From Candidatus Omnitrophota bacterium (GTDB lineage: Bacteria; Omnitrophota; Gorgyraeia; Gygaellales; Profunditerraquicolaceae): DNA of 64,000 nt. The stretch covers positions 42,409 through 106,408 of the forward strand of contig JAQUMX010000001.1 of NCBI GenBank assembly GCA_028717885.1. The letters run 5' to 3'. The notes beneath the pieces were generated by a model that was not told where the DNA came from, searched no databases, and was given only the letters and a program-made list of their open reading frames with translations. Both the position numbers and the translations under genes were made by a program. Shown here piece after piece: positions 39,294-59,561 of the stretch (position 1 is the first letter of the stretch; every line of letters starts with the position of its first letter).

Positions 39294-40385
39294 TTATTCC
39301 CTCGAATGGGCAGCTACTGCCACCTGGCCTAAGGATATGGAAACGTCGCTGCTCGATAAGCTCTGGTGGGTTATTGCTTTGAACTTAAGCTTACATAATA
39401 ACTCCAAAGTTAAGCCAAGTAAAAGCTTATTTTGAAAAACACCCCCGGAGAGGGCTACCTGATCAATCTCGCTTTCTTTGCGTAATTTTAGGCAGGTTTT
39501 TGCGATCATTTGCGCTATTGTGCAGTGAAACCGGAAGGCAATTTCATCTTTTGGTTTACGCTTCTCTAAATCTTCCAGGATTTGCCTGAAAATAGCTGTG
39601 GGGTCAATGATATATTGCCCTTGTTTTTTTTGAATCGTAAATTTATACTCTGCTGCCTTACCGGCATAGCAAGAAGCGGCCCTTTCTAGTTCAATCGGCA
39701 ATTCTGCTTCTTCTGCGACCTGATATTTTTTTAAAATCAGGCATCCTGCCGCATCAAAAAGCCTGCCCATGCTGCTTGCTGAGGGCGTATTTAGCCTTTG
39801 CTGCATGAGTTTTCTTAAGATACGGCATTGTTTTTGGTACTGTGCAGGCAAAACTGCGCAATTATCCCAAGCACAGACTAACCTCCAGGGCTCTAAAACA
39901 GCTTTTTCTCCCCCTAATAGCGGGATCTCTTTCAAATGCGCCTTTCTCTGATAATTCCCGTAATTACAAATCAGGAATTCCGAGCCCCAGATCGAATTAT
40001 CGCTGCCTAACCCCGTACCATCAAAAGCTACCCCGATAATTTTACGGTTAGTTAAGCCATTTTCCGCCATACAAGCGGCAATATGTGCGTGATGGTGCTG
40101 CACCGCAAAAAAACTATAACTCCCGCGGCCCAGGCTTAAGGCGAATTTACTGGATTGATAATCCGGATGCAAATCATAAGCAATAATTTTTGGTTTCTGG
40201 CGCAAAAAATACCTTGCCTCTTTTTCAAAAACTGTCAAATCATCCGGGTCGCTTAAATCATTGTGCGCTGTAGCAAGAAAAGCGGCCCTGCCCCGGGCAA
40301 AACAAAGGGTATTTTTAGTTTGCGCCCCAAAACCAAGCACTGCTTTATCCGCTGCAAATGGCAGAGGTATTTTTTTTAGTTTCAT
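39294..40385 (-). CDS. HypF-like carbamoyltransferase comprising only the C-terminal Kae1/ASKHA domain (no acylphosphatase, Zn-finger or YrdC domains)
   Basis: 363 aa. VLGFGAQTKNTLCFARG... and the HypF metal-site motif VQHHHAHIAACMAE. The start overlaps the upstream gene's stop, leaving no room for the N-terminal domains. Confidence 0.7.
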   Translation of the reverse strand: MKLKKIPLPFAADKAVLGFGAQTKNTLCFARGRAAFLATAHNDLSDPDDLTVFEKEARYFLRQKPKIIAYDLHPDYQSSKFALSLGRGSYSFFAVQHHHAHIAACMAENGLTNRKIIGVAFDGTGLGSDNSIWGSEFLICNYGNYQRKAHLKEIPLLGGEKAVLEPWRLVCAWDNCAVLPAQYQKQCRILRKLMQQRLNTPSASSMGRLFDAAGCLILKKYQVAEEAELPIELERAASCYAGKAAEYKFTIQKKQGQYIIDPTAIFRQILEDLEKRKPKDEIAFRFHCTIAQMIAKTCLKLRKESEIDQVALSGGVFQNKLLLGLTLELLCKLKFKAITHQSLSSSDVSISLGQVAVAAHSRE

Positions 40386-41137: not shown

Positions 41138-42434
41138 AAATCGCCTCTAATATGCCTTTAGCCTTCACCAGGGTTTCTTGATACCCCTCTAAAGGCTTAG
41201 AATCCGCAACGATGCCTCCGCCGGCCCAGAAATAAAGATTATTTCCTCTTTTTAAAATTGTCCTGATCAGAATATTAAAATCCATCCTGCCGCAAAAACT
41301 CAAATAGCCTAAGACGCCCGTATAAGCCAAGCGCTTATTAGGCTCCAGTTCTTTGATTATCTCCATGGCGCGGATTTTCGGGCATCCGGTGATAGAGCCG
41401 CCAGGAAAACAAGCGCGTAAAAGATCGAACCTGTCGCAATCGCGAAAAAGCCTGCCTTCAATAGTAGCGGTAGTCTGGTAGACCGTACGGTAAGCTTCTA
41501 ACTGCCTTAATTTACTTACCTTGATCGAATTATAATCGCATACCCTTCCTAAGTCATTTCTTTCCAAATCCACGATCATAGTCAATTCTGCTTTATCCTT
41601 AGCGCTCTTTAAAAGTTCCAGCTTCAAGGCTCTATCTTTTTTGGCGTCTAAATGGCGCGGCCGCGTGCCTTTCATGGGAACCGTACTTACTTTCCCCTGG
41701 GACAATTTCAGGAAGCGCTCCGGAGAAGAACTTAAAATCTGATGGTCCCCGGCATCGAAATACGCGGCAAAAGGCGCAGGGCTTGATTTTCTTAAACGTA
41801 AATAAATTTCTGCTGCCGATAGGTTTGTCCGGGCAAAGAAACGCTGGGAAAGGTTAACCTGATAAATGTCCCCTTGCCGGATATATTCTTTCGCCTTTTT
41901 TACCGCAGCCAGGTAATCGGCCTTCCTGAAATTAGATTCCAATTGGCTAGCTTGAGGCGCTTGTTTTTTATTCTCTCGCGTAACATTTGTTGCAAAGATT
42001 ATTTTTTCCGCTTTATCTAAATTCGATTCTGCCAAAATTTTGGCTAAAGAAGCGTTCTTTTCCGGAAAACCCGTACAGCAAATTAAAATCCTGCGCGTAA
42101 AATTATCTAAGGCAATTACCGTATTATAAAAATTAAAAATGCCTCCCGAATCATACCCCATATAGCCCACTGCGCCACCGATAAAAGGCGGAGCTCCGGG
42201 ATGCGCCTCTAATGAATATTCCCGGCTTGCTTTAGCCAATTCCCGGAAAGGGTCATGGCTTCTTTTTAATCTTATCTTAAGGAACGGCTCAAATCCCAGG
42301 AAAGAATACCTTGCGCTCTCGCGATTGGCCAACCCGGAATCCAAAAAAAACAAATCAGGATAACCGCAGAGCCGCTTAAAAATAGCTGCAGGGTCGAATT
42401 TTGGCTTATACGATTTCCAAATGAAGTATGCCAT
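41127..42434 (-). CDS. pabB: Chorismate-binding enzyme, aminodeoxychorismate synthase component I-like
   Basis: 435 aa; C-terminal FPGGSITGCPK chorismate-binding signature. Confidence 0.75.
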   Translation of the reverse strand: MAYFIWKSYKPKFDPAAIFKRLCGYPDLFFLDSGLANRESARYSFLGFEPFLKIRLKRSHDPFRELAKASREYSLEAHPGAPPFIGGAVGYMGYDSGGIFNFYNTVIALDNFTRRILICCTGFPEKNASLAKILAESNLDKAEKIIFATNVTRENKKQAPQASQLESNFRKADYLAAVKKAKEYIRQGDIYQVNLSQRFFARTNLSAAEIYLRLRKSSPAPFAAYFDAGDHQILSSSPERFLKLSQGKVSTVPMKGTRPRHLDAKKDRALKLELLKSAKDKAELTMIVDLERNDLGRVCDYNSIKVSKLRQLEAYRTVYQTTATIEGRLFRDCDRFDLLRACFPGGSITGCPKIRAMEIIKELEPNKRLAYTGVLGYLSFCGRMDFNILIRTILKRGNNLYFWAGGGIVADSKPLEGYQETLVKAKGILEAIYGD

Positions 42435-43227
42435 CTATTCTGAAAGAACGTTCCTCATTGCGTAAAGAACAGTAACCGATAACATAGCTGACTCCTCTTT
42501 CCTGCTTGATTTCCCTAGGAGTTACCTGCCTTTCCGTAACCTGGGCATTTACCGAAGAAAGGTATTTAATCTTTAATTTCATTTCCCGGGCAATTGCTTC
42601 CTCGATTTCAGCGATTCTCTGGGCATTTAAGTCCTGCAGGAATTGCGGGTTAAGCGAAAAAAGGCGGGAAAAATTCCTAAAATCGCTTACCCCCTGGGAA
42701 ATCAACTTTTCTTTTAAGTGTTTAAAAACCAACCAGGTAATCTCTACGTCGGAAAGCGCCCGGTGCTGCTGTTGCTGCTTGATTCCTAAATGCTGCACCA
42801 CAAACCAAAGCGCATAGCGCTCTAATTTAGGTAAGAGCCTTCTCGCCATTTTTAAAATATCCAGGACAATGATCTCTTTAGGAAATTCACTTTTAATAAT
42901 CCTGGCTTCATTTTGCATGAATTCCAGGTCAAAAGAGGCATTGTAGGAACAAATACAGCTGCCTGCGATAAATTTCAAGAATTCCGGCATTACCTCTGTA
43001 ATCTTCGGCGCATCCCGAAGCATTTCTTTACTGATTTTATTTACCGCGAAGGCCCCAGGAGAAACTTCTCTTTCCGGATTAACCAAGGAGGAAAAAACAG
43101 CCAGCTTTTCTTCTCCCTTAAACCTGATTGCCGCGATCTCTACCACCCGGTCTCCTGCCCGCGGCTCTAATCCGGTAGTTTCCGTATCAAAAATAGTGAA
43201 TTCTACTTCTTCAATTAGCCTGTCCAT
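42406..43227 (-). CDS. DEDDh 3'-5' exonuclease (DnaQ/epsilon-like) with C-terminal extension
   Basis: Exo I motif FTIFDTETTGL, Exo II and III (HRALSD) motifs; 273 aa. Confidence 0.75.
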   Translation of the reverse strand: MDRLIEEVEFTIFDTETTGLEPRAGDRVVEIAAIRFKGEEKLAVFSSLVNPEREVSPGAFAVNKISKEMLRDAPKITEVMPEFLKFIAGSCICSYNASFDLEFMQNEARIIKSEFPKEIIVLDILKMARRLLPKLERYALWFVVQHLGIKQQQQHRALSDVEITWLVFKHLKEKLISQGVSDFRNFSRLFSLNPQFLQDLNAQRIAEIEEAIAREMKLKIKYLSSVNAQVTERQVTPREIKQERGVSYVIGYCSLRNEERSFRIDGILHLEIV

Positions 43228-44122
43228 TTTTTTTCACGATTAACGCGGGAATCAGCCTGAGCGGCTTGTAAGAAAATTTTACCTGCTCAAGATTTTTTAA
43301 ACCGGAATCATCCATTACATTGATATATTTAAAATTTTTTGCCCGAACGCAGAATTCCTGAAAAATAAATTGCGCTATCCCCTTAAAAGAAAGGTCAGCC
43401 ACTTCATAGAGGACGCAAAATGTTTGCCGGTTTAATTTATAGCCTACGGTAAAAGCACGCACCTTTCCTCTGACTTTCACTACCAACCCTTCACAGCCCA
43501 GTGAATCGAAATTACGCAACAAAACTTTTAAAGCACTAAAGCTATCTTCCAGCATTCCCTGATAAACATGATCGCAATTTAGTTTAGCGCGCTGCTTTGC
43601 CCAGGCGTGATATAAATTAAGGCATTCATTGCGATGAGAATTCTTGAGGCTATCGACTTGAAATTCATTATGCTTTAAAAAGTAGTTTTTGCTGGAACGC
43701 TTAGATTTAAATTTATTCCCTTTTAATTCTGCCAGGTCACTGCGCGCACAAAGGTAATCAGAGGATTTCTTTTCGATAGATAGCCCCAGAGAGCGGTAAA
43801 AATCCAAATCCTTCTCTTCTACGTTTTCGATGCGGGAAATTTCCTTGTTTTTGTTCAATCCATCCAGTGTTTTAAAAATCTCCTGGACCAAACCGGGGGT
43901 TAATTTTTTTGTGAGCGGCCCCAGGTATAAAAATATACCGAAATTGTCCTTAAAAAAAATGCAGAGGCTCTCTTGAACTAAAGCCCAATATATCCGGAAC
44001 AACCCTTTCCAGATATAAATATCGGCAAAAGAATAAACAGCAAGCTCGTGGCTGGATAGTTTTAAAAAACGCTCGACAAGTGACTTATTCCGGAGTGTCA
44101 GCCTATTTAGTTTCATCCTCAA
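43211..44122 (-). CDS. DUF2156-like (MprF C-terminal / aa-tRNA-dependent GNAT-fold transferase-like) protein; assignment tentative
   Basis: 303 aa. Size and bipartite pattern resemble DUF2156. No strong motif could be verified by eye. Confidence 0.3.
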   Translation of the reverse strand: MRMKLNRLTLRNKSLVERFLKLSSHELAVYSFADIYIWKGLFRIYWALVQESLCIFFKDNFGIFLYLGPLTKKLTPGLVQEIFKTLDGLNKNKEISRIENVEEKDLDFYRSLGLSIEKKSSDYLCARSDLAELKGNKFKSKRSSKNYFLKHNEFQVDSLKNSHRNECLNLYHAWAKQRAKLNCDHVYQGMLEDSFSALKVLLRNFDSLGCEGLVVKVRGKVRAFTVGYKLNRQTFCVLYEVADLSFKGIAQFIFQEFCVRAKNFKYINVMDDSGLKNLEQVKFSYKPLRLIPALIVKKNGQAN

Positions 44123-44609
44123 TATTTAATTCAATAATTTCGGAAACTTCTTCGTAAGCAACAAGGAGCTGGGGATTTTCGTGTAAAATCTTTTTTTGCT
44201 CCGGAGAGTCAAGGAAAGCGGCCAGGTATTCGCTGTAATCTTTGAATTCTTTACTCTTTAAATTTTCTTTGACGTAAGGGCAATTCAAATCTACGGTCAA
44301 GAGCACTTTTTTATTGCGTAAATTGATTAAAAACGGATACAGCTGGCATTCAAACGGCCGGCAGGAATAGATACGGCATTGGTTTTGCCTATTTAAAAAC
44401 GGGCAGATAAAACCTTCCCCCTCGGGGTTAGCAACAGGATTGATCCTTTTATTCAAAGAAATCGTGCAGGCAGGCAAATTTTCTTTCTCTAAAAGCGCCT
44501 GTACTTCCTCGTCCAAAAGGCAGGGCGCCCAGACGGAATTCTCCTCCCGAAACCTGCAGCAGCCTTGGCATTTTAAACAAATTTCCTGAGGGACAAATTG
44601 CTCTATCAT
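44103..44609 (-). CDS. YkgJ-family Cys-cluster protein (CxxCxxCC)
   Basis: N-terminal CLKCQGCCRF plus additional Cys (CPFLNRQNQCRIYSCRPFECQLYP). Confidence 0.6.
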   Translation of the reverse strand: MIEQFVPQEICLKCQGCCRFREENSVWAPCLLDEEVQALLEKENLPACTISLNKRINPVANPEGEGFICPFLNRQNQCRIYSCRPFECQLYPFLINLRNKKVLLTVDLNCPYVKENLKSKEFKDYSEYLAAFLDSPEQKKILHENPQLLVAYEEVSEIIELNIEDETK

Positions 44610-44995
44610 TTTACGACGCTTCCTAATTTAACCTCTTTTTGCGGGCTAACTACCACAATCCCGTTTTCATCGGAAGCAGCCAGGATCATCCCCTGGCTTT
44701 CCACTCCCCGTAAGATCGCCGGCTCTAAATTATCTACGACTACCACTAATTTCCCGACTAAGTCTTCTTTTTGATAATAGGCCCTGATGCCTGCCACAAC
44801 CTGTTTCTGCCTATCGCCTAAGTCCAAAGTCAAAAGATAAAGCTTATCCGCATTCGGATGATCCAGGACTTCCTTGATTTTGGCGACCCTTAATTCCAAT
44901 TTTCGAAAATCTTCGATTGTAATCATTAAAGTCCTCCCTATTTTTCTTTTTTTAACTAAAGCTGAACGGAATTTATTTATGCGGGGAGCCGTCAA
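44606..44995 (-). CDS. tRNA-binding-domain protein (Trbp111/CsaA/EMAP-II-like OB fold)
   Basis: 129 aa with LELRVAKIKEVLDHPNADKLYLLTLDLGD...QVVAG, the hallmark of the standalone tRNA-binding domain. Confidence 0.7.
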   Translation of the reverse strand: MTAPRINKFRSALVKKRKIGRTLMITIEDFRKLELRVAKIKEVLDHPNADKLYLLTLDLGDRQKQVVAGIRAYYQKEDLVGKLVVVVDNLEPAILRGVESQGMILAASDENGIVVVSPQKEVKLGSVVK

Positions 44996-46121
44996 TCATT
45001 TCTGCGCGGGCATGAGCAACCTCGCAGAAATATTCTACCGGGGTATCCATCTTCCCAGTTTCTAAATGCGCATGGGCAGGGCACCAGATACAAAGATTAA
45101 CCAATGAACACTTGCGGCACTTATCCAAAAATGCTTTATTATCCGAACGCAGGTCCCTGACCTGCAGCACGAATTTTTCCCAAATCTGGCTTAAATCTCC
45201 TGTTTTTAAATCGCAGATGCACTGCGGATGCCATAATGAAGAACAAAGGCGGAAGTACCCTTCGTAACTGACCGTGAAACTACCGTTACCGGTTCCACAA
45301 TGAAAAAGATGATTGCAATTAAAATGCTCGAATTCCGGGTTGATCAATTCATTGCAGCCCTTCCTTAAAGCCCCGTAGCGTTCATCGTCCGCTTTTTCTA
45401 TCGCTACGATTTCTTTCGGAGAAAGCCGTTCGGATTTAATCTCTTCGTTGCGCTTTGGATTTGCATCGAAGCGCAAATGCAAAAACGGATCGAAGCGAAA
45501 ATAATCTTTCGTCCTCTCCCGGCAAAATTCGGAAATTAAAGGCAGCTCATGCACATTGGAGCGGATTGCCATTGCCTTATAGCGCACCTTAATCCCGTTA
45601 TCTAGGAGCATCTTCAAGCCCCGCATAAAAGCCTTAAAAGAGCCCTTTTTATTGCTTACCTTTTCATATGTTGCTTCGGTAACGCCGTATACCGTTACTT
45701 CGATATCCCGGGGAGGGTATTTTTTAAAAAGATCGATGTGTTTCTGCGTAATCAGCGTGGCATTGGTAAAAACCGAAATAAACAACCCCTTCTTCTTAAG
45801 GTACATATAGATTTCAAAAAAATCTTCCCGCAAAAGCGGTTCTCCTCCGGTAAGCAAACACCAGAGTGCGCCCAAGGAAACTGCCTGGTCGACGATTGCC
45901 TTGATCTGCTCTAAAGGGATTTCTTTTTTCTTCGCCTCTAAATCGTTTTGAGGCAGGTTAATGTAGCAGTGCCGGCAATCGTTGTTGCAGCGGGCGGTCA
46001 GTTCCAAATCAAATGAAATGACATTGCGCTGGTTGCGCATTTTTTCCCAGACCGGGAATTCAGGCAATGACATGCTGGAAACAAACATTTCGTTGTTTTG
46101 CGGTTTTTCTTCTTCCATCAT
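44973..46121 (-). CDS. Radical SAM / SPASM-domain peptide-modifying enzyme
   Basis: CNNDCRHC cluster motif near the N-terminus; C-terminal Cys-rich SPASM region (CGTGNGSF...C...CRKCSLVNLCIWCPAH). Confidence 0.8.
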   Translation of the reverse strand: MMEEEKPQNNEMFVSSMSLPEFPVWEKMRNQRNVISFDLELTARCNNDCRHCYINLPQNDLEAKKKEIPLEQIKAIVDQAVSLGALWCLLTGGEPLLREDFFEIYMYLKKKGLFISVFTNATLITQKHIDLFKKYPPRDIEVTVYGVTEATYEKVSNKKGSFKAFMRGLKMLLDNGIKVRYKAMAIRSNVHELPLISEFCRERTKDYFRFDPFLHLRFDANPKRNEEIKSERLSPKEIVAIEKADDERYGALRKGCNELINPEFEHFNCNHLFHCGTGNGSFTVSYEGYFRLCSSLWHPQCICDLKTGDLSQIWEKFVLQVRDLRSDNKAFLDKCRKCSLVNLCIWCPAHAHLETGKMDTPVEYFCEVAHARAEMIDGSPHK

Positions 46122-46633
46122 AGTATAGGTTTAAGGACCTTTCTGATTTTAATGGGGATCCTTCTCCAGCACCAGACCAAAGTAGGAAGGATTCTTTCCC
46201 GGCTTAAAAAAACAATCAAGGTCTGTTCTTTACCTAGCCCTAAGCGCACGGCTTTGCCGTTACGCTCGATTTTCGAAACAAACCCCAGCATATTTTTTTT
46301 AGGGATAAAACCATCAGGATAAAAAAGGCTGTCCCCCTTAATCAGGTAATGTTCCGGAAAATCTTTGATCACCCTGTGGATAATCAACTTTTCCGCGCAA
46401 GGATGAATAAAAGCAACTGCTTTTCCAAAAACCGATTTTGCGCTGGACAAGGGTGAAATCGTCACAATATCCCCGTCACGGATAAAAGGCGACATGCTAA
46501 AACCTTTTACCTGAAAACGGAAAAACGCCCTTTTTTCCAATGTTGCCAGCATCAACTCAGATAGCGCCTTGCCGGAAAGAAATAACTCTTCATCGCTGAC
46601 AACACAAAATTCTGACCTATTTTCCAATTTCAA
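46118..46633 (-). CDS. S24/S26-family serine peptidase (LexA/signal-peptidase-like), possible leader peptidase
   Basis: KGFSMSPFIRDGDIVTISP matches the S24/S26 catalytic Ser region. Lys-containing downstream segment. 171 aa. Confidence 0.5.
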   Translation of the reverse strand: MKLENRSEFCVVSDEELFLSGKALSELMLATLEKRAFFRFQVKGFSMSPFIRDGDIVTISPLSSAKSVFGKAVAFIHPCAEKLIIHRVIKDFPEHYLIKGDSLFYPDGFIPKKNMLGFVSKIERNGKAVRLGLGKEQTLIVFLSRERILPTLVWCWRRIPIKIRKVLKPIL

Positions 46634-46925
46634 CGAGCATATTCCTTTTCATTAACTCCTGGGTAAACCCAAGAATATCCTGTTCTATGTCGCTTGTACC
46701 GCTTTCAAAATCGCTGCTTAAATCTTTGGCAATTACTTTTAATGTTTTTTTACCATCCATCCTGTCCCAGATCGCCCTCCCGGTTTCATTCAGGGTAAAT
46801 ATTTCATCCTCCAGGTCGCCGATTCCGCTGGTGATAGGGATAATGATAAATTCTCCTTGTACCTGCCGCGCTACCACATCTTCACTGGGTTTATAAACTT
46901 TTTCGATGCTCACCTTTTTCTCCAT
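46617..46925 (-). CDS. PqqD-family protein (RiPP recognition element)
   Basis: 102 aa with the PqqD pattern (...FTLNETGRAIWDRMDGKKTLKVIAKDLSSDFE...DILGFTQELMKRNMLV). Confidence 0.7.
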   Translation of the reverse strand: MEKKVSIEKVYKPSEDVVARQVQGEFIIIPITSGIGDLEDEIFTLNETGRAIWDRMDGKKTLKVIAKDLSSDFESGTSDIEQDILGFTQELMKRNMLVEIGK

Positions 46926-46934
46926 ACCACCCTC

Positions 46935-48116
46935 CTATATTTTCCTCGCACACAAATTATCGATTCTTTCTTTCCAATTCTCCACTTCCCAAGCCCGTTC
47001 GTCCTCTCCCACTAACCCTAAAAACCTTGCCTGGGCATGGGCAATTTGGCAAAGATAGTCGCTCGGCGTATCCAGCGTGCCGTATTCCGACCAGGATTTT
47101 GCCGGGCACTGCTCACAAAGCCCTTTTAAAAAACAACGGGCGCAACGATCCAAATAATCCTTATTTTTCGCCCTGATTTGCCGGACCTTAGGGAAAAAAT
47201 TAGTCACTGCGTCTTCCAATGTCCCTTTAGATAGGTCATAGGTAGTTTGCGGATGCCGCAACATCATACAGGGCTGGAAAAAACCGTAAGCATCTACGCA
47301 CCCGCTGCAATTGCCGGAGCCGCAGGAAAAAAGGTTATCTGCGGATGCGCGCATAAATTTAGAGCAGAATTCCTGCATGCCTTTGATATATTCGTCTTTT
47401 TTCCGGGTCAAAACTCCCAAGCCCTCTTCTGCAGAAAGCCTTAATTTTTTAATCTGCTCGCTCTTGGCATCCCGCCTGCAGCGTAAATCAAAAAACATCG
47501 AATATGACGGCGGACGGTTATCCATCCAGGGGATCTTTTTTGACCAGGCTTCGAATTCTTCGATTTCATTCTTATTCTCATTGAGCAAAGCGCCTTTTAC
47601 CACAAAAGGGACTTTGTTTTCCCATAAAAGATTGATCCCGCGAAAAGCAGCCGCATAAGACCCTTTTACCTGGGTCACTGCTTCATAGGATTTTTCTTTC
47701 ATTCCATAAACAGTCACTTCCATTTTTTCCATAGGAGGAATATGTTTAAATAATTCTATCCATTTTGGGGTAATCAGCGTGGCGTTGGTAAAAATCATCA
47801 CCTTTAGCCCCAGCCTACGGGCAAAAATGTAAAGCTCTTTGAAATCTTCCCTTAAAAACGGCTCTCCGCCGGTAAACCTGACGGTCATGCACCCTAAATC
47901 CGCGGCTTCCTTAAGGATCTCTTCGATCCTTTGCGTCGAAAGCTCTCTTTTTTTGGCCGCAGGGTCATCCTTGGATAAATTAATACAGCAATGGACGCAA
48001 TTATTATTACAGCGTTCCGTCAACTCGATATCCAACCAGCCTAAAACCGGGCCGCTGCCTTTACTAAATTGCGGAGCACTTGCATTTACTATTGAAACGT
48101 AAGATTCGTTCTTCAT
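46935..48116 (-). CDS. Radical SAM / SPASM-domain peptide-modifying enzyme
   Basis: CNNNCVHC; C-terminal SPASM Cys cluster (CGSGNCSGCVD...C...CARCFLKGLCEQCPA). Confidence 0.8.
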   Translation of the reverse strand: MKNESYVSIVNASAPQFSKGSGPVLGWLDIELTERCNNNCVHCCINLSKDDPAAKKRELSTQRIEEILKEAADLGCMTVRFTGGEPFLREDFKELYIFARRLGLKVMIFTNATLITPKWIELFKHIPPMEKMEVTVYGMKEKSYEAVTQVKGSYAAAFRGINLLWENKVPFVVKGALLNENKNEIEEFEAWSKKIPWMDNRPPSYSMFFDLRCRRDAKSEQIKKLRLSAEEGLGVLTRKKDEYIKGMQEFCSKFMRASADNLFSCGSGNCSGCVDAYGFFQPCMMLRHPQTTYDLSKGTLEDAVTNFFPKVRQIRAKNKDYLDRCARCFLKGLCEQCPAKSWSEYGTLDTPSDYLCQIAHAQARFLGLVGEDERAWEVENWKERIDNLCARKI

Positions 48117-50068
48117 AATTTTTTTAAAATCCCCACGATTTCTTTATCTTTATTAAACCTCTGAATATAACAGGGGACATTTTCTACGATATCATCAACC
48201 AGGACCAAAGTTTTATCCCACCAATCCGTAGTGACAAAAGGCTTGATCAGGCAGCTTAAAACCCTCTTTGTCGCCTCATTTTTATCCTTAAGAGGGATCA
48301 GCCTGTTTTCCTTGGCCTTTTCCAGAAAAAGCAAAGCCGTAAGCGGAACGGATTTCCCGGAAACCGTGGGGCAGTCCCCGTGGCTCCAGGTACCGTATGC
48401 CTTGAAATCATTTTTGCATTTACGCACGATAATCCGGTCATCACAAAGTATCTGCGCGTCGTCTTTCAAAATATTCGCCATGGTAGTTTTTCCGGCTTCG
48501 GAGTGGCCGACAAAAAGCAAACCCTTGCCGTTAAGGTCGACTCCGCAAGCATGCAAATAACAGCCTTGCCTGTCCGCCAAAATGCGCGCAATCAAAATCT
48601 GATCCGTAGGAAAGAGAGTCAAAGAATGCAAATCCCCTTTACGGAAATATTCGTCTTCGGTATTGTAGATCCTGGCGCTGGTATGGTCATGATTAAAAAC
48701 AGCAACCCGGTGCAAACTTTTATCTTCTGCCTGGGGCGAGATGCCTAAATATATCCAGGAAGAATTATTTTTATAAACTGCCCAGGGAGGCTTGCGGTAA
48801 AATTCCTTGCCCAATTCTTTTTCTTTTAATTCCGGAAGCGAAAAATGGTGCCTGATGCTGACGATATCCTTGCCGGGCTTGTCAGTAGCAAATAAGTTGA
48901 ATTTAGGATGAAAGGTCTTTCCATCCATCGGAACATCTGCCTCTACCTGAATGGTAATATCTGCGATATTAAAATAGCGTCGGTGGGTCATTATCCAATC
49001 CTCCTTGAATTTTTCATTCTCCCTGGCCGCATCACAAAGATAATCTATTTTTGCGTCGTATCTGCCATGTTCCAGGTAACTGTATACCGGGCAGATCCGG
49101 CAATTCTGCCGCTGCGCGCAGGACCCGCAGTTCTCTTCATATTCTTTGGTAACTTTAATTTTTTTTCCTAACGAAGGAATAAAATTTTCCCATCCTTCCT
49201 CGAAGGTGCCCTTGCGCAGGTCATAGCGCATCTTTGGATCCTTTAAAAAGCAGCAGAATGTCATTCCTCCGTAAGGATCGACATGAAAATCCCTGCGCAT
49301 CGCTACACAAGAACCAAAAAGATATTCTTCCTTGCTGTCATGGCAATAGCGGTGGCCAGCTTCGCGGTGCATCTGGTCTTCATATGATAAATCCGGCTTG
49401 TCTAGCTCAATGACTTCTTTGGCAGGTAAGCGTTGGCGGATAATTTCCTCATTTATTTTTTTGTCTGCGCAAGCGGAAAGATACAACCATGCAGCTCCCA
49501 CACGGTAATGCTTGCTTAGAGATTCGGCTAATTTAACCATCTCCTGAAATTGATGGTAATTATCGCGCATAGGGATCAACTGCACGATAAAACCGGCGCC
49601 TGCTTCTTTAAGATAGCGAAACCCACGCATGGTCTGCTCGAATGAACCGGGGTTACGCGTAATGCGATCGTGCACTTCGGCGGTAGCTCCGTAAATCGCC
49701 ACCATTTTCGCGCCTTTTTTCTTTAAAAGCTTGGCGATTTTAGGCGTAATTAACGCACCATTGGTATTAATAGAATAAGAATTCGCATTACTGGTAATAT
49801 ATTCGAAAATTTCCGTAAAATCCTTGCGCAACATCGGTTCCCCGCCGGAAATCGACCACCTGCGGCAACCCATTTTCTTGGCATCGGAAACCAGTTTCTT
49901 GATTTCTGCTAAGCTAAGCTCATTTTTCGCTTCTTTGGCATCGGGACCCACCCGTAACCAGCAATGCCGGCAATTATTATTGCAGCGATAGGTTAGATCC
50001 AAACTTCCTTCGAGCGGAAGGCGCGGAAGGATAAATTGTTGTTTTACCTCAGAATATTCAATAGACAT
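48113..50068 (-). CDS. Radical SAM / SPASM enzyme fused to a C-terminal HPr-kinase-like P-loop domain
   Basis: N-terminus CNNNCRHC plus SPASM Cys cluster. C-terminal ~250 aa with FVGHSEAGKTTMA Walker-A in an HprK C-terminal-domain-like context. Confidence 0.7.
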   Translation of the reverse strand: MSIEYSEVKQQFILPRLPLEGSLDLTYRCNNNCRHCWLRVGPDAKEAKNELSLAEIKKLVSDAKKMGCRRWSISGGEPMLRKDFTEIFEYITSNANSYSINTNGALITPKIAKLLKKKGAKMVAIYGATAEVHDRITRNPGSFEQTMRGFRYLKEAGAGFIVQLIPMRDNYHQFQEMVKLAESLSKHYRVGAAWLYLSACADKKINEEIIRQRLPAKEVIELDKPDLSYEDQMHREAGHRYCHDSKEEYLFGSCVAMRRDFHVDPYGGMTFCCFLKDPKMRYDLRKGTFEEGWENFIPSLGKKIKVTKEYEENCGSCAQRQNCRICPVYSYLEHGRYDAKIDYLCDAARENEKFKEDWIMTHRRYFNIADITIQVEADVPMDGKTFHPKFNLFATDKPGKDIVSIRHHFSLPELKEKELGKEFYRKPPWAVYKNNSSWIYLGISPQAEDKSLHRVAVFNHDHTSARIYNTEDEYFRKGDLHSLTLFPTDQILIARILADRQGCYLHACGVDLNGKGLLFVGHSEAGKTTMANILKDDAQILCDDRIIVRKCKNDFKAYGTWSHGDCPTVSGKSVPLTALLFLEKAKENRLIPLKDKNEATKRVLSCLIKPFVTTDWWDKTLVLVDDIVENVPCYIQRFNKDKEIVGILKKL

Positions 50069-50127
50069 GCTTGTTGGGTACCTCTAGAGCTCAAAAGATG
50101 GGCCTGTTTATTTCAAAAGGCGCTTAA

Positions 50128-50170
50128 CTGCTATATTATACAATAGATTAAGATATTTTAAAGGGTTTTT
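50128..50170 (-). promoter_or_regulatory. Putative sigma70-type promoter (extended -10 TTGTATAAT) between the small ORF and the radical SAM genes
   Basis: Minus-strand reading: TTTAAA-16nt-TGTATAAT, then AGAGGT RBS before the ATG at 50068. Confidence 0.3.
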
Positions 50171-50215
50171 TCCGGCAAATCAATTACTTACCAGGAAAAA
50201 CGCCCTTATATTCCT

Positions 50216-50416
50216 TTATGAGTTTGCCATCTGGTCACACCAATTGCCGCCGCAATATCTTTCATTGAAAAAATGATAACATCCATAGTCTTTACCGTCA
50301 GGGCCCGATAGAGGATATACATACTTGCAGGATCGCAGTATATTCTCCTGCCTATGGCTTTCTCTGGCCAGAATAACAATCTTTGGCCTTAACCATTTTT
50401 TCTTTCTCTGAAACAT
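50216..50416 (-). CDS. Candidate RiPP precursor peptide: 66 aa, basic leader, Cys-rich core, C-terminal Ser
   Basis: Strong RBS (AAGGGAGGT, 5 nt before the ATG). Sequence ...RSCKYVYPLSGPDGKDYGCYHFFNERYCGGNWCDQMANS. Sits between the ABC exporter and three radical SAM/SPASM genes. Confidence 0.45.
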   Translation of the reverse strand: MFQRKKKWLRPKIVILARESHRQENILRSCKYVYPLSGPDGKDYGCYHFFNERYCGGNWCDQMANS

Positions 50417-50469
50417 CTATACCTCCCTTGTGTTTACCATTTAAAGATTTAGTTGTCTTTTATAGCGCC

Positions 50470-52200
50470 TTAATCGGTCTGATTTTGAAAAAATTCCCGG
50501 TAATCCTGGCTGGCTGACAAAAGTTCTCTGTGGGTGCCGGTTTCCATCTGGCTGTCCTTTTTAAGAAAATAAATCCTATCTGCATCTTTTACCGAAAAAA
50601 GGCGGTGAGAAATAATCAGCGTGGTTAATCCTGCTCGCTGTTCTTTAAGATTATTGAATATCTTCTCTTCGGTCTGAGAATCTACGGAAGAGGTGGCTTC
50701 ATCTAAAATTAAAAGCCTGGGTTTCCTGAGAATTGCCCTTGCCAAAGCTACCCTTTGTTTAAACCCCTGAGAGAGCCGAAAGGCATCTTCCCCAATCAGG
50801 GAATCAAATCTGTCCGGCAATTGGCTGACAAAATTGTCAATACAGGTGATCCGCGCCGCATCTTCGATTTCCGCTTGAGAAACCCCCTTTAAACCATAGC
50901 AGATATTCTCTTTTATCGAAGCATCGAATAAAAACGGCTGCTGAGTGGCAATAGCGATATTTTCTCTTAAGTCCCTGATTTTAATCAGTTTTAAATCCTG
51001 CTGGTCTAAAATAACCTCCCCTTTCCAGGGATCATACAGCCGTAGGATCAAATTAAAAAGCGTGGTCTTTCCGCATCCCGAAGGGCCGACAATCCCTGCC
51101 CAGGAAAAAGCCGGGATATGAAAATTTAACCCCTTAAAAACAGGGGCGTTTTCTTGATACCCGAACCAGACGTCTTGAAAAATAATTTCTCCGCGCACAT
51201 TTTTTACGCTTTTTGCCTGAGGCAGGTCACGTACTTTTGGCCGTGCATGTAAAACCTCGAATAACTTTTCCAGAGAAACCGATTCCTGTACAAAATTCCG
51301 TAACCTAAACCCCATCGATTCCAATAAGCCGCCTAGTTGCGTCAGGTAGATCATTACTGCTGTGTAGCTACCCAAGGTAAGGCCGCCCTTGATAATCAGC
51401 CATCCGCCGTAGAGGGTGATTACTCCGAAAATTGCCTTGGAGAGAAAGCTGGAAGTGATGGAGCTAACCAGCCCCCAGCGAAAACTTTTTATCCTCCAGC
51501 GTATATTTTTGATCAGAGAATCAAGGTACCTGTGCCTTTTAAAATTCTCCAGGCCCAGTGCTTTAATAATCAGGATTTTGGAGAATGCCTCATTCAGTTC
51601 TTTATAAAGATAGGCGCTGAACCTCCAGATCTCTTCATAAATCGGCCGTAGTTTATTTTGGATGTAAAAACTCTGGATAAGAAAAAGCGGGCTTAAAATT
51701 ACCAACAGGACGGTCATGCGCAGGTTTAACCAGAGGCAGATTCCCAGGATCATGACCATCTTAACGATATCGCACAAGATCTGCGGGCATTGTTCAAGCA
51801 AAAAATTAGCCACAATTTCCGTATCAGACAGCCTGAAGAGGTTTTCTCCGATAGATTTACTGTAGAAAAAAGAGATGTCCTGGGAAAAGAATTTTCTGAT
51901 CAGCTTATGGGATAAATTTAGGCGCAATTTTACGGAGATGCGGTTTTTCACGATATCGCTTGCCAGCGTGAATAGAGTACTAAAAACAAATACTACGGCG
52001 CCCCAAAACGAGAGGCTTAAAAATTTTCCCAGGTCCTTTCCCAGGAATGCCTTATCGATAAAAAGCTTAGAAAAATAAGGGCCGATAAGAAAAAACAGAG
52101 AGGAAAGAAAAGAAAGAAAGAAAAGCACCAGGATTTGCCTTTTATAAAGCAGGACAAACCCCATTAAATTCCTGATTTTCGTTTTTGTTTCCGCTTTCAT
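50470..52200 (-). CDS. ABC exporter, fused TMD-NBD (type I exporter, peptide/lipid export family)
   Basis: 576 aa; six N-terminal TM helices; Walker A GPSGCGKTT, signature LSQGFKQRVALARA, Walker B LLILDEATSSVD. Confidence 0.8.
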   Translation of the reverse strand: MKAETKTKIRNLMGFVLLYKRQILVLFFLSFLSSLFFLIGPYFSKLFIDKAFLGKDLGKFLSLSFWGAVVFVFSTLFTLASDIVKNRISVKLRLNLSHKLIRKFFSQDISFFYSKSIGENLFRLSDTEIVANFLLEQCPQILCDIVKMVMILGICLWLNLRMTVLLVILSPLFLIQSFYIQNKLRPIYEEIWRFSAYLYKELNEAFSKILIIKALGLENFKRHRYLDSLIKNIRWRIKSFRWGLVSSITSSFLSKAIFGVITLYGGWLIIKGGLTLGSYTAVMIYLTQLGGLLESMGFRLRNFVQESVSLEKLFEVLHARPKVRDLPQAKSVKNVRGEIIFQDVWFGYQENAPVFKGLNFHIPAFSWAGIVGPSGCGKTTLFNLILRLYDPWKGEVILDQQDLKLIKIRDLRENIAIATQQPFLFDASIKENICYGLKGVSQAEIEDAARITCIDNFVSQLPDRFDSLIGEDAFRLSQGFKQRVALARAILRKPRLLILDEATSSVDSQTEEKIFNNLKEQRAGLTTLIISHRLFSVKDADRIYFLKKDSQMETGTHRELLSASQDYREFFQNQTD

Positions 52201-53285
52201 TTTAGCAATTGGCTATATATACCTTCTAAAGATTCTACTATATTATCCCAGTTATAGCCAGCGGCAATTCTTTTTGCTTCCAGGCCTTTTTGCTTTACCA
52301 CTTCCGGATGGTTAATCAGATATTCAAGCTTATTTCTTAAGTCCCGGGCATTGCCTTTCTGAAAATAAACCCCTGCGTCTTTTAAAACTTCTTTGAACTC
52401 CGGGATATTGCTTACCAACAAGCATTTAGCGAATGAAGCAGCTTCCAACATCGAGAAAGAAAGCCCTTCAATCTCAGAAGGAAAAACCGCCAGATACGCC
52501 TGGCTATAAAAAAAATCTAGCGCCCTACTGTCAACTTGCCCTACAAAAACCGTATTTTCTCCTGCTATGCTTTTCAAATATTCTAAATATTTTTTCGCGA
52601 ATGCAGCATCCCCGGCAATCACCAGCTGAAAATCACTCTTTAGCGCCTTAAAAGCCGTAATCAGGCAATCTATGCCTTTCTCTTCGGTGATCCTGCCGGA
52701 AAACAGAATGAATTTGGCATTTTTCCATCCGGCGTACTGCGGCCCAATCTCCGGAGTAGCTTCCTTTAAATTAATGCCGTTAGGAATATAGGTTGCTCTG
52801 CCGGCAAACATTTTTTCCATATTTTTCGAAACCACGATCGTTTTGTCGGCAAAATAGAGCGCGGGGAACTGGCAAGCCCAAAGAAAAATTTTTGCGAACC
52901 ACGGCCATTTTTTTCTTTTCCAATCTAAAGCATGGATCGTTACTACCGTTTTTTTTCCAAATATCCTGGGTAGAAAAGAAAAAACCGACGGCCCCAGGCA
53001 ATGATAGTGCACTATATCTACCTTACGAAACAATACATCGGCAGTGGCAAAAAATGAGGCGATAAAAGTAGCAAGGTATTTATTCTTTAACGTCGGAGTT
53101 TCGATTACGTTCACCCGGGGAAAAAGCTCTTTTTTTCTGAAAACACGCTGCAAATTCTCTGCATGGCCATAGACAATAAATTCCGCATTCTTTAAAGAAA
53201 GCCTTTTTACTGTCTCTTCAATATTCCTCTCTACCCCGCTGTAACAAGCAGGAATCCCCCGGGAACCGATAATAGCAATTCTCAT
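52197..53285 (-). CDS. GT-B fold glycosyltransferase (GT4/GT1)
   Basis: 362 aa; C-terminal EGLSFSMLEAASFAKCLLVSN EX7E-type region. Confidence 0.75.
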   Translation of the reverse strand: MRIAIIGSRGIPACYSGVERNIEETVKRLSLKNAEFIVYGHAENLQRVFRKKELFPRVNVIETPTLKNKYLATFIASFFATADVLFRKVDIVHYHCLGPSVFSFLPRIFGKKTVVTIHALDWKRKKWPWFAKIFLWACQFPALYFADKTIVVSKNMEKMFAGRATYIPNGINLKEATPEIGPQYAGWKNAKFILFSGRITEEKGIDCLITAFKALKSDFQLVIAGDAAFAKKYLEYLKSIAGENTVFVGQVDSRALDFFYSQAYLAVFPSEIEGLSFSMLEAASFAKCLLVSNIPEFKEVLKDAGVYFQKGNARDLRNKLEYLINHPEVVKQKGLEAKRIAAGYNWDNIVESLEGIYSQLLK

Positions 53286-54496
53286 TTATTTTTTACGCTC
53301 ATCTCTCCGGCGCCTGCTGTCACGCTTAAAATCGCCAGGAAGATCCAGAACAAATAAAAGGTTGTCTGCCATAATAAGCCGTCAAACGCAGCCATATTAA
53401 TCAGCAGGCCCAAAAAGCCCAAAAATAAAGCGCTCTGGCGGTTTTTCCATGCCTTTTTAAAAACAACACCTAAAAGAAGCATTAATCCCAAAAAGCCCAA
53501 CAAGCCTGTTTCTGCTAAATGCATAAGATAAATGCTGTCCGGCACTCTTACTTCCGGATTAAGCCGATAACGCGTAAAATTTGCGGCAAATTCCCGGTAA
53601 TGATTTAATCCGATTCCCACAAGAGGATGGTTTTTTAAAACATCCCAGGTAATTAAATAATTCTTTGCCCTGTGGCTAAATCTGACATAATAAAACAGCC
53701 TGACTATCCCGAAGCGTTTGGAAAAACCTGGCCCAAAAATCGAGAATGCGCTCAGAATAGAAAAAAACAAACAACCCAGCCAAAGATAAGAAATCCATTT
53801 CTTTTTGCCTACTTGCCAGAGCCAGAAAGAGCAGATCAGTAAACCAGCAAACCATGTCCCGCGGGAAAAGCTTAAGATAATCCCCGCTACAATCAGGCAA
53901 AAACAAGCTAGGTTAAAGAGTTTAAGCCTGTAAGTTGGGGCGTTACGGTAAAAATAATTCGCCAGGGGCGCACAACCGATCAAGTATGCTCCCACAATAT
54001 TCGGATGCACCAAAGTTGACATTACTCTCTTGCCGATGAAGCGTAGATAATACGGATTATCCAACAAATACAGATAAACAGGATTGGCTTTAAAAAACAT
54101 TTCTAGAATGCCTAAAAGCGAAACGATCCCTGCGCAAACTACCAAACAATAGAGTATTTCCTGATAGTCCTTTGATTTGGCTACCTGCCGGAAGATAAAA
54201 AATACCGAAGCGGCACTAAGGCAGAAATCCTTATAAAAAACAAAGGCCTGATTTGAAGATAACGCTCCCGGCAAAAGCAAAAGGAAATATGCGCCCAGAA
54301 CCGCTGCCGAAGGATTTAAAAAATATTCCCGGAAATTAAAACGCTGTTCGATTAAAGAAAGCAGAAAAAGCATGCCTAATCCGAGATTAAGCTGTAGTTT
54401 ATACTGCGCCTGGAACGGATCCGGCACAAAAGAGATCCAACAGATAAAGAAAATTAAAGACAGCTTGATTATCCGGCGTAAACCTCCTCTTAACAT
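53282..54496 (-). CDS. O-antigen ligase/polymerase (Wzy_C)-like membrane protein
   Basis: 404 aa, ~11 TM helices, large loop with HLAETGLLGFLG-type Wzy_C pattern. Confidence 0.6.
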   Translation of the reverse strand: MLRGGLRRIIKLSLIFFICWISFVPDPFQAQYKLQLNLGLGMLFLLSLIEQRFNFREYFLNPSAAVLGAYFLLLLPGALSSNQAFVFYKDFCLSAASVFFIFRQVAKSKDYQEILYCLVVCAGIVSLLGILEMFFKANPVYLYLLDNPYYLRFIGKRVMSTLVHPNIVGAYLIGCAPLANYFYRNAPTYRLKLFNLACFCLIVAGIILSFSRGTWFAGLLICSFWLWQVGKKKWISYLWLGCLFFSILSAFSIFGPGFSKRFGIVRLFYYVRFSHRAKNYLITWDVLKNHPLVGIGLNHYREFAANFTRYRLNPEVRVPDSIYLMHLAETGLLGFLGLMLLLGVVFKKAWKNRQSALFLGFLGLLINMAAFDGLLWQTTFYLFWIFLAILSVTAGAGEMSVKNK

Positions 54497-54499: not shown

Positions 54500-55822
54500 C
54501 TACTCCTTCATCCCTGTTGTCAAAGCAGCCAGCAAGCCGCAGTAAATCCAGAACATATATAAAGGCACTACCCACAATAAAGCATCAAAATAAACCATCG
54601 CAAACAGGATAATCAAAAACCCGGAACTTAACGCCAAAACAAGGCCGGAATCGCTGCGCTTAGCCCGGATATATTTTACGGCATCCCGCATTAAGATATA
54701 AATAAAAAAAACAAAGGAAAGGAAAACGATTACTCCCCCTTCAGCCAAGATCGTCAAGTACATATTATCGGCGATTTTGGCATAATCACGCTTAATTTCA
54801 GGGTTATAAAAACCATAATATGAGCGGAATTGCGCCAGCCCTACTCCGGCAAAAGGATGGTCCTTAGCCATTTGTAGCGCAATTTTCCAGTTATTTGCGC
54901 GCGAATTGGAGTCAACTAACATGCCGATACTAAACCTGAAAAATACAGCGCCCACCCGCGATGTGGGATTGAATTTCGTAATCAGCGTAGAGAATAAAAC
55001 CAAGGTCACAAAAATCAGGATAATATGGCGCCACATTTTTCTATTTTTGAAAAAGGCATAGAATAAAGATGCTGCCAAAACAGCGAGAAACACTCCCCGG
55101 GTAAAAGTAACAAAAACCCCGGCGCCGATCGTAATCGTCATTATCCCGGCAATTAAACGCTGCTTCTTCCTTCTTTCCGCAATAAATGCCTCGAAGAAAA
55201 GCGGCAAGAGCGCCCCAAGAAAAACCCCCAAGACCTGCGGCACTGACTGAGTAGCCATTGCGCGGCGCTGAAAGAGAAAAAACAGGTAAAAAGCATTGTA
55301 AATTAGTTTTTCGAAAATCAGATTCCGGTCAAGAATGAATTCGACCACGGCAAACCCGGCCACAATCAAGGCAAAAACACCAAATAATGCCAAGAATGCT
55401 TTTTTGTTTTTCGATAGGGGGAATTCATTTTTAAATAAGAAGTACAAAATGGGGCCGGGTAAAACGAATTTGACAAAACAGGATGCGGCGGCGGGCCTAT
55501 CTTTTACCCAAATCAGATTAAAAGAAAGAATTGCCAAAAATAAGACCACTAAGAAGTCTTTTGTTCCGAAACTGGCGATTCTTCCGGCAAAGACAGAAAC
55601 AGCCAACCCGATCAACAGCATAATAAGTATAGGCGTACTGCAGCTTGAATAAAGCGCTTCCGGTAAAAACGATAGCCAAAAAGCCAAGAACAGGCAAATC
55701 ACCGAGAAGGCCCCCGACGAATATCCCTGCAACTTATGCCTTGCCGACAAAGAACCTGGAAAAATGCCTTTCATAAAATGAAACCCTCCATAGGTAGAGA
55801 AGAAAATCCAGCGGATTATCAA
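54500..55822 (-). CDS. O-antigen ligase/polymerase (Wzy_C)-like membrane protein
   Basis: 440 aa polytopic; loop YLTILAEGGVIVFL similar to the neighbour. True start may be an internal Met, which would reduce the overlap with the upstream gene. Confidence 0.6.
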   Translation of the reverse strand: MIIRWIFFSTYGGFHFMKGIFPGSLSARHKLQGYSSGAFSVICLFLAFWLSFLPEALYSSCSTPILIMLLIGLAVSVFAGRIASFGTKDFLVVLFLAILSFNLIWVKDRPAAASCFVKFVLPGPILYFLFKNEFPLSKNKKAFLALFGVFALIVAGFAVVEFILDRNLIFEKLIYNAFYLFFLFQRRAMATQSVPQVLGVFLGALLPLFFEAFIAERRKKQRLIAGIMTITIGAGVFVTFTRGVFLAVLAASLFYAFFKNRKMWRHIILIFVTLVLFSTLITKFNPTSRVGAVFFRFSIGMLVDSNSRANNWKIALQMAKDHPFAGVGLAQFRSYYGFYNPEIKRDYAKIADNMYLTILAEGGVIVFLSFVFFIYILMRDAVKYIRAKRSDSGLVLALSSGFLIILFAMVYFDALLWVVPLYMFWIYCGLLAALTTGMKE

Positions 55823-59395: not shown

Positions 59396-59430
59396 CCGCT
59401 TAAATTTTCCTTGTCGGAAAATTTAAGCGG
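59396..59430. terminator. Perfect 15-bp stem hairpin (ccgcttaaattttcc-ttgtc-ggaaaatttaagcgg) between the cyclase gene and tRNA-Asp
   Basis: Seen directly. No clear U-run on either side, so terminator function is uncertain. Confidence 0.3.
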
Positions 59431-59503: not shown

Positions 59504-59561
59504 ACAAATAAGGAAACTAATTATACCCGAAACTCTTCCTTTTGCAACTCAATTTTCTAAG

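Follow-up and report, generated by a model that had tools for sequence, protein, structure and literature searches.

A conserved radical SAM/SPASM cassette with a fused HprK-like domain, and its predicted precursor peptide family, in Omnitrophota and other lineages

The window, a stretch of 64,000 nucleotides from Candidatus Omnitrophota bacterium (GenBank assembly GCA_028717885.1, contig JAQUMX010000001.1, positions 42,409 to 106,408), contains a gene cluster that probably directs production of a peptide that is made on the ribosome and modified after translation (RiPP), with the precursor matured by the cassette in the manner proposed below. A first-pass annotation had described nine open reading frames (ORFs) between 44103 and 52200, on one strand and with overlapping codons, as a RiPP-type maturation cluster that includes three radical S-adenosylmethionine (SAM)/SPASM enzymes. 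The ORF coordinates and hidden Markov model (HMM) scans bear out this gene content. All nine ORFs are on the minus strand, each stated domain was confirmed, and stop/start overlaps of 4–23 nt are found among them.

Seven of these genes are of main interest. An ABC exporter with fused permease and ATPase (50470–52200, minus strand as are all that follow; ABC_membrane and ABC_tran) precedes the gene for a 66 aa peptide with 4 Cys (50216–50416), which carries the leader of a peptide family described below and has a Shine-Dalgarno sequence. The next gene (48113–50068) predicts a 651 aa fusion of a radical SAM/SPASM enzyme (Radical_SAM, 86.5 bits) with an HprK-like domain. Its first half, rSAM1 (residues 1 to ~355; 49004–50068), includes a CxxxCxxC motif and seven invariant Cys, and its second half (residues ~360–651; 48113–48991) is a ScmC/HprK-like P-loop domain (TIGR04249, 44.7 bits). 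Downstream are genes for a second radical SAM/SPASM enzyme, rSAM2 (46935–48116; Radical_SAM), a PqqD-like protein (46617–46925; PF05402, 50.8 bits), an S24/S26 peptidase (46118–46633; Peptidase_S24 PF00717, 24.9 bits, gathering score 23.3), and the third of the radical SAM/SPASM enzymes, rSAM3 (44973–46121; Radical_SAM). In the HMM check suggested by the first-pass annotation, the PqqD and peptidase families were found, the Hpr_kinase_C family (PF07475) reached only 18.1 bits against a gathering score of 33.3, and the SPASM match was weak in rSAM3.

As judged from gene order and homology, the conserved core is composed of the precursor, the rSAM1-ScmC fusion, rSAM2, the PqqD-like protein, the S26-type peptidase and rSAM3. 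This core recurs in ~160 independent loci in the same gene order and at 50–70% identity, which is far beyond chance. The earlier reading of a RiPP-type cluster with three radical SAM/SPASM enzymes is supported. A first scan of one genome per species identified 79 loci; the set used for precursor and tblastn searches consists of 82 genome loci, and a later set of 84 further loci was searched solely with the core and accessory queries. In tblastn mapping, the block fusion-rSAM2-PqqD-S24-rSAM3 was found repeatedly in related genomes, with each component 45–70% identical to the window copy. Orthologues of rSAM2 are 47–67% identical across phyla, and the fusion protein has >1,800 relatives, the best 120 listed being at least 63% identical to it.

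The hosts are anaerobic bacteria and methanogenic archaea. They include Omnitrophota, Margulisbacteria, Saganbacteria, WOR-3, Desulfobacterota, syntrophs (Smithella, Syntrophorhabdales), Aminicenantes, Acidobacteriota, Chloroflexota and Victivallaceae, as well as, among archaea, Methanothrix and Methanomicrobiales. The labels of some bins may not be reliable, but several loci are on megabase contigs, among them L029 (2.2 Mb, Methanotrichaceae), L062 (1.95 Mb) and L075 (1.2 Mb). A distribution over Omnitrophota, syntrophs and Methanothrix suggests exchange of a peptide chemistry between the two domains within methanogenic communities. In L063 (2682–9164) and L043 (5053–9199), a second, distant set of radical SAM, ScmC-like and S24 paralogues (22–31% identity) is located upstream of the main cassette, and may represent another related peptide system.

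The precursor gene in the window is preceded by a strong Shine-Dalgarno sequence, AGGGAGG, that ends 6 nt ahead of the ATG. The leader is assigned to M1–K31 (KKKWLRPKIVILARESHRQENILRSCK) and the core to Y32–S66, which includes Cys46, Cys55, Cys60 and the C-terminal Ser66. The exact sequence is on record solely in Logan gene calls and is absent from the NCBI annotation of the metagenome-assembled genome. Three precursors searched against Pfam and NCBIfam had no match even at E = 10. Using a leader pattern and then a leader HMM, a homologous small ORF was detected in 66 of the 82 genome loci, and those where none was detected are mostly on short contigs. The pattern search of the genome loci recovered 97 unique precursors, to which the leader HMM added further copies. 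Of 114 copies, 109 are on the cassette strand and 101 are inside the cassette or at most 1 kb away, supporting the first-pass proposal that the 66 aa Cys-rich ORF is the peptide substrate. A profile search of 5.8 billion proteins identified 458 family members, all unnamed and none with a Pfam domain.

Members of the family share the leader consensus KKxWxKPxLIVLxRGxPEExVLxxCK. A (K/R)-rich N-terminus is followed by W-x-K-P-x-L-I-V-L-x-R-G-x-P-E-E-x-V-L-x-x-C-K, then by a variable stretch of ~15 residues in which Gly, Ser and Pro abound, and finally by C-x5-8-C-x2-3-C-x5-S. The window precursor matches this arrangement at W8, P11, E24, C30-K31, C46, C55, C60 and S66. Among 120 gene-called members, 113 have exactly 4 Cys and 104 have exactly 6 residues past the last Cys. 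The C-terminal residue is Ser in 107 and Thr in 13, hence always one of these two (120/120) and never Ala or Gly. Pairs of members are on average 75% identical in the leader, and 11–12% in the core when the fixed Cys and terminal Ser are left aside. On comparative evidence, the conserved leader, hypervariable core, fixed Cys and Cys-x5-Ser end mark the 66 aa gene product as the substrate of the cassette.

Up to 12 different precursor copies are present per locus (L020 and L106). Arrays of 7–12 distinct precursor genes in one cassette were seen in L020 (11583–19221), L106, L032 and L117, the last two being from Methanothrix, which suggests a combinatorial peptide library processed by a single enzyme set. 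In the window, a long hairpin is located just 3′ of the precursor stop (~50159–50208, minus strand) and a promoter-like site, TTTAAA-16-TATAAT, is found at 50162–50135, ahead of the fusion gene. Placed between precursor and fusion, the two could set the ratio of precursor to enzyme. They are not claimed as functional elements, as the fold has a z-score of just −1.65 and shuffled sequence contains promoter-like sites at least as often.

The three radical SAM enzymes are paralogues with 30–39% mutual identity. Each carries an invariant CxxxCxxC and seven conserved C-terminal Cys as in the SPASM domain, and these are conserved among 82, 65 and 51 orthologues of rSAM1, rSAM2 and rSAM3, respectively. 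In rSAM1 the motif is at C29/C33/C36 and the invariant Cys are at 254, 272, 314, 317, 323, 326 and 345; the SPASM match of rSAM3 is weak (PF13186, 19.3 bits). None of the three enzymes has an N-terminal extension before CxxxCxxC, and hence none has its own recognition domain, which fits with the presence of a separate PqqD protein. With this divergence among them and the motifs retained in each, the three look non-redundant; across phyla, each also persists as an orthologous group of its own at 50–70% identity. The general marks of a radical SAM/SPASM RiPP system, namely the motifs, a co-located precursor and a PqqD-fold recognition element, are all present.

A further set of cassettes (L088, L120, L159 and others) consists of a standalone ScmC gene, rSAM2, PqqD, S24 and rSAM3, and has no rSAM1. 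Loci of this type were scanned for with a 4-sequence alignment of standalone ScmC proteins, and two of the standalone contigs were too short to inform. In loci with standalone ScmC and no rSAM1, all 9 unique peptides have 3 Cys, whereas only 8 of 161 unique peptides from loci with the rSAM1-ScmC fusion do (Fisher p = 9e-11). The 3-Cys peptides have the same leader and the C-x5-S end but are missing one Cys of the C-terminal CxxC pair. Of all the observations, this link between the number of Cys and the number of enzymes speaks most strongly for the Cys being modification sites, for non-redundant paralogues and for rSAM1 acting next to the C-terminus. Three loci (L097, L122 and L161) carry both a standalone ScmC and an rSAM1-ScmC fusion and may be intermediates in the history of the gene fusion.

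The HprK-like half of the fusion scores below the thresholds of the HprK families. Besides the 18.1 bits for Hpr_kinase_C, it scores 44.7 bits for ScmC (TIGR04249; cut-off 125), for which standalone relatives score 24–51 bits, 27.7 bits for HprK_rel_B and 24.0 bits for TIGR00679 (cut-off 240). Precomputed annotation places the family PF27840, ScmC, on a database copy identical to the window fusion as well as on each of the 120 homologues listed. The Walker A motif (G-x-S-x-A-G-K-x-T; G521, S523, A525, G526, K527 and T529) and the DD metal-binding motif (L541-C-D-D-R545) are invariant. Only matches to the kinase half were used from the AlphaFold model of the fusion; in Foldseek searches this half matches ATP-dependent phosphoenolpyruvate carboxykinase (PEPCK) and HprK/P with E = 6e-5 to 4e-4, in a region with a predicted local distance difference test score (pLDDT) of 80–90. 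BLASTP aligns the P-loop and DD motif of the ScmC domain with a kinase-like protein encoded in a lasso cluster from Paenibacillus (E = 2e-6). The invariant Walker A and DD motifs, the fold match to PEPCK and HprK and the homology to the lasso-cluster protein together support a kinase reading of the domain. When 1.84 billion representatives were searched with it, both fused (~650 aa) and standalone (~300 aa) forms were recovered, in 178 clusters at E ≤ 1e-30 and 1,894 at E ≤ 1e-10.

The PqqD-like protein matches PF05402 and, among the PqqD-family models, scores best against TIGR03859 (41.4 bits, cut-off 46), the next NCBIfam matches being lasso_PqqD_Bac (30.8 bits) and ScmD (30.3 bits). It is a putative peptide recognition element that would bind the leader. 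The peptidase scores 37.3 bits against TIGR02228, under the cut-off of 51.85, and a sequence search against solved structures returned nothing significant. Its motifs G-x-SM-x-PFI, HR and GD are conserved at ≥90% in 41 homologues, and this set, in which the HR box has His where Lys would otherwise stand, marks the Ser/His signal peptidases of the endoplasmic reticulum/archaeal (S26B) and SipW type. A fusion of the peptidase to a GNAT acetyltransferase is seen in 12 loci, L029 (7781–8803) and Methanothrix loci among them, which would fit removal of the leader and then acetylation of the N-terminus thus exposed. L002 instead has a separate GNAT gene located between the fusion gene and rSAM2. A Pfam scan of the ABC exporter detected no C39 peptidase domain. 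The Ser/His/Asp motifs, the GNAT fusions and an ABC protein that lacks C39 point to the S26 protein as the probable leader peptidase.

The boundaries given by the first-pass annotation require correction at both ends. Upstream, an NTP_transf_5 nucleotidyltransferase gene (PF14907, 178.7 bits; 55734–56822, minus strand) is a conserved accessory. It is linked to the ABC gene through genes for two Wzy_C membrane proteins (54500–55822 and 53282–54496, minus strand) and a family 4 glycosyltransferase (GT4; 52197–53285, minus strand), identified by Pfam matches, all with overlapping stop/start codons. Accessory genes were counted near the cassette in the 25 loci in which none of the three radical SAM genes is missing and flanking sequence extends for 4 kb or more on each side. 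The ABC exporter was found in 19, NTP_transf_5 in 18, GNAT in 5, and Wzy_C and GT4 in 4 each. The exporter and NTP_transf_5, at ~75% of these loci, are accessories of the core, and the GT4 and Wzy_C genes are lineage-specific accessories at most. The neighbour set of Wzy_C and GT4 seen in the window is the same in L046 and L006.

At the other end, the tRNA_bind gene (44606–44995, 106 bits) and the CxxCxxCC/YkgJ gene (44103–44609, 29.1 bits), both on the minus strand, had been counted as cluster members. No tblastn match to these two, to the adjacent DUF2156 gene or to the exonuclease-WYL gene was obtained in any of the 82 genome loci. With zero co-occurrence, all four were rejected as cassette members and are neighbours in a tightly packed genome, not parts of the system.

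The closest curated relative is the SynChlorMet (SCM) cassette, defined by ScmC (TIGR04249), ScmD (TIGR04248), ScmE (TIGR04250) and ScmF (TIGR04251). Both combine paralogous radical SAM/SPASM enzymes with a PqqD-family protein and an HprK-like protein of ScmC type, and the two-enzyme loci with unfused ScmC and the same leader family (L088, L159) have the SCM architecture. However, the equivalog cut-offs are missed throughout, with ScmC at 44.7 bits against 125, ScmD at 30.3 against 100, ScmE at best 80.4 against 400, and ScmF at 98.4 and 85.3 against 400, and the SCM cut-offs in NCBIfam are missed in the standalone-ScmC cassettes too. The window cassette further differs in that ScmC and a third radical SAM/SPASM enzyme are joined in one protein, that an S26 peptidase lies within the core, and that a precursor family is identified here. 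To our knowledge, the TIGRFAM entry for SCM states that no precursor is known. The precursors are without a Pfam or NCBIfam model and are often missed as genes, and naming them makes this orphan SCM-related cassette directly testable.

In open-access text, no paper was found on SCM, ScmC or PF27840, nor on the radical SAM-kinase fusion, PF14907 or this precursor family; the open-access literature on RiPPs of Omnitrophota and Methanothrix holds nothing on this system, and the Mitchell-lab compendium of radical SAM enzymes does not mention a kinase. The first-pass statement that this is not a described cluster type stands insofar as no paper was found. It does not stand for computational definitions, as the SCM cassette (TIGR04248–04251) and PF27840 already exist in that form.

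The second comparison is with lasso peptides. In Firmicutes, homologues of HprK transfer a phosphate to the C-terminal Ser of the lasso precursors for paeninodin and pseudomycoidin, and PsmN, described as an uncharacterised NTP transferase, then places one or two hexoses on that phosphate (PMC6993621, PMC8498205). In actinobacterial lasso precursors, the leader has a conserved YxxPxL motif and is the part to which the B1 recognition element binds (PMC6784204). The clusters for paeninodin and pseudomycoidin (PadeK/PsmK, PsmN) share with the window an HprK-like kinase, a precursor ending in Ser, NTP_transf_5, an ABC exporter, a PqqD-type recognition element and an aromatic-x-x-P-x-L motif that follows a Lys-rich N-terminus in the leader. 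The near-invariant C-terminal Ser/Thr described above strengthens the parallel with the lasso kinases that had been raised from the sequence. Unlike those clusters, the genes of the window between 43211 and 57826 include neither an Asn_synthase-like lasso cyclase nor a B2 transglutaminase-like protease. Three radical SAM/SPASM enzymes and the S26 peptidase stand in the place of the cyclase and B2, and the core is built on Cys, not on an isopeptide ring.

In a locus of Paenibacillus cellulosilyticus (L084; NZ_CP054613.1, 1032018–1044710), the gene order is NTP_transf_5 (208 bits), a lasso cyclase of the Asn_synthase type, a small ORF, then a gene for an HprK-like protein. The small ORF predicts MSKKNWQAPVVEAL...TVTIS, a precursor with leader KKNWQAPVVEAL and a C-terminal Ser. 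The locus resembles the system described here in having a Lys-rich N-terminus followed by W-x-x-P-x-(L/V), a kinase, NTP_transf_5 and a C-terminal Ser. No annotation is listed for this lasso-type cluster in the gene table of the plasmid collection.

On these comparisons, the following pathway is proposed. The free-standing PqqD protein would bind the W-x-x-P-x-L leader and present the peptide to the three radical SAM/SPASM enzymes, each of which would modify one of the three core Cys, most likely through a thioether or other Cys-centred crosslink. rSAM1 would belong with the additional Cys in the CxxC pair near the C-terminus, and the HprK-like domain fused to it would phosphorylate the hydroxyl of the C-terminal Ser or Thr, as the homologous kinases of paeninodin type do. 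NTP_transf_5 may then extend the phosphate with a sugar or nucleotide, perhaps with the help of GT4 and Wzy_C in the window genome. Leader removal would fall to the S26-type peptidase, after which, in some lineages, the fused GNAT would acetylate the N-terminus so exposed, and the ABC transporter would export the product. The product could be an antimicrobial or a signal.

The general logic, with a precursor, a PqqD-type element, SPASM enzymes, a peptidase and an exporter, is familiar. No published description was found for a kinase-radical SAM fusion, for a paralogue number that tracks the Cys number, for an S26-type leader peptidase or for a near-universal Cys-x5-Ser/Thr C-terminus. A bolder reading, which we offer as a tentative possibility, is that the cassette represents a new RiPP class shared horizontally between Bacteria and methanogenic Archaea, in which one paralogue serves each Cys, a fused kinase acts on the C-terminal Ser in coupled fashion, and the tailoring genes form a portable module. 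If this is true, the Cys-x5-Ser spacing would reflect the coupled fused pair, the kinase docking the C-terminus and so placing the neighbouring Cys in the radical SAM site, or, alternatively, the phospho-Ser would take part in ring formation or in attachment of a glycan or nucleotide. Leader, recognition element, kinase and NTP_transf_5 would then be a module swapped between lasso and radical SAM peptides.

Several points weigh against the pathway as proposed. The link type and the acceptor residues are not readable from sequence, and the chemistry is inferred. The radical SAM enzymes score far under the cut-offs of the characterised RiPP maturases AlbA, SkfB, StsB, PapB, PqqE and MftC, and the kinase domain is under the gathering score of Hpr_kinase_C and of every NCBIfam HprK family. 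The full-length AlphaFold model of the fusion is moderate (pLDDT 64), with a poor radical SAM half. The first Cys of the peptide is in the invariant CK at the junction of leader and core, such that its membership of one or the other is ambiguous. The Cys correlation draws on just 9 unique peptides from two-enzyme loci; L164, a two-enzyme-like locus of undecided fusion status, has a 4-Cys peptide, and L085 shows a single radical SAM gene. NTP_transf_5 is missing near about one quarter of the complete loci, and GT4 and Wzy_C are rare. For the placement of PsmN in PF14907 the support is indirect only and comes from L084.

On another reading, the cassette might make an ordinary sactipeptide or ranthipeptide with several Cys-to-carbon thioethers, in which the paralogues are partly redundant, the HprK-like domain is a non-catalytic scaffold that binds ATP or peptide, and the terminal Ser is a recognition feature for the exporter or protease. 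A Cys-rich core, SPASM radical SAM enzymes with auxiliary clusters and leader recognition through a RiPP recognition element or PqqD fold are all shared with the systems of AlbA, SkfB, ThnB, CteB, PapB and StsB; a PqqD-type element is present here, StsB, AlbA and PapB are among the weak NCBIfam matches, and the kinase domain is below its family thresholds. We nevertheless regard this as unlikely. Those systems usually have an N-terminal fused recognition element and one enzyme for all links, whereas here the recognition protein is separate and three paralogues track the Cys number, each being a separate orthologous group at 50–70% identity across phyla and rSAM1 appearing with one extra Cys. 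Neither the Walker A motif nor the DD metal-binding motif varies, and the C-terminus bears a hydroxyl in 120 of 120 peptides. The maturase cut-offs are missed as well, for the sactipeptide enzymes AlbA (850 bits), SkfB (300) and StsB (625) and for the ranthipeptide enzyme PapB (NF047865; 45–60 bits against 340).

Two further readings concern the fate of the peptide. Wzy_C proteins are relatives of O-antigen ligases and O-oligosaccharyltransferases, and the peptide might be a glycan carrier or anchor, its phospho-Ser glycosylated through NTP_transf_5, GT4 and Wzy_C to give a secreted or surface glycopeptide in place of a small toxin. The genes for NTP_transf_5, Wzy_C, Wzy_C, GT4 and the ABC protein do form an overlapping run directly upstream of the precursor, similar neighbours are found in L046, L006, L027 and L018 (with PMT_2, GNVR or Wzy_C in L001 and L002), and the phospho-Ser of pseudomycoidin carries hexoses (PMC6993621). 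We hold this to be very improbable, since Wzy_C and GT4 are near only 4 of the 25 complete loci and in Omnitrophota genomes unrelated genes lie tightly packed along a single strand, as seen in the window over 30–57 kb; it would in any case be an addition to the proposed pathway and not a replacement for it. Least probable of all is that the cluster matures a redox cofactor, or a peptide that binds metal or Fe-S, for use by the producing cell itself, much like pyrroloquinoline quinone (PQQ) or mycofactocin, with the four Cys as ligands. PQQ (PqqD/PqqE) and mycofactocin (MftB/MftC) likewise combine a free-standing PqqD-family chaperone with a SPASM enzyme that has no recognition domain, the top NCBIfam matches of the radical SAM enzymes are AhbD, NirJ, MftC and PqqE, enzyme conservation is strong, and four Cys could bind metal. 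But the precursors of those cofactors have invariant cores and their products are kept in the cell, whereas here the cores are hypervariable (11–12% identity), up to 12 precursor genes are found per locus, and the genes include a dedicated ABC exporter and a peptidase for the leader. The scores also fall well short. AhbD and NirJ reach 96–121 bits against an AhbD cut-off of 500, NirJ2 and NirJ are proportionally as far below theirs, and every cofactor-family cut-off is missed about five-fold; taken together, AhbD/NirJ, MftC, PqqE, StsB, AlbA, PapB and ScmE/F all score 45–120 bits against cut-offs of 265–850. Matches at about one fifth of the cut-offs reflect generic similarity, and with the hypervariable cores they led us to reject cofactor maturation. 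The first-pass annotation had itself named, as what would count against a RiPP cluster, matches to cofactor-maturation families together with the lack of a conserved small ORF, and the findings do not bear this out.

Other features of the window lie outside the cassette. The stretch directly 3′ of it (43211–44995, minus strand) is occupied by the tRNA_bind and YkgJ genes and a DUF2156/LPG_synthase_C gene, of a family that uses aminoacyl-tRNA, and is followed by an RNase_T-type exonuclease fused to a WYL domain (42406–43227, minus strand). A HypF-like gene (39294–40385, minus strand) that adjoins HypD (38008–39096) retains only the C-terminal Kae1-like domains (PF17788, PF22521) and may be a split or shortened HypF. 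Genes for tRNA-Asp (GTC) and tRNA-Val (TAC) are located in 59427–59635 (minus strand). A c-di-GMP-I-GGC riboswitch (RF03167; 62.4 bits, gathering score 59) was detected at 8509–8594 (minus strand), directly upstream of a 1105 aa ORF at 5084–8401.

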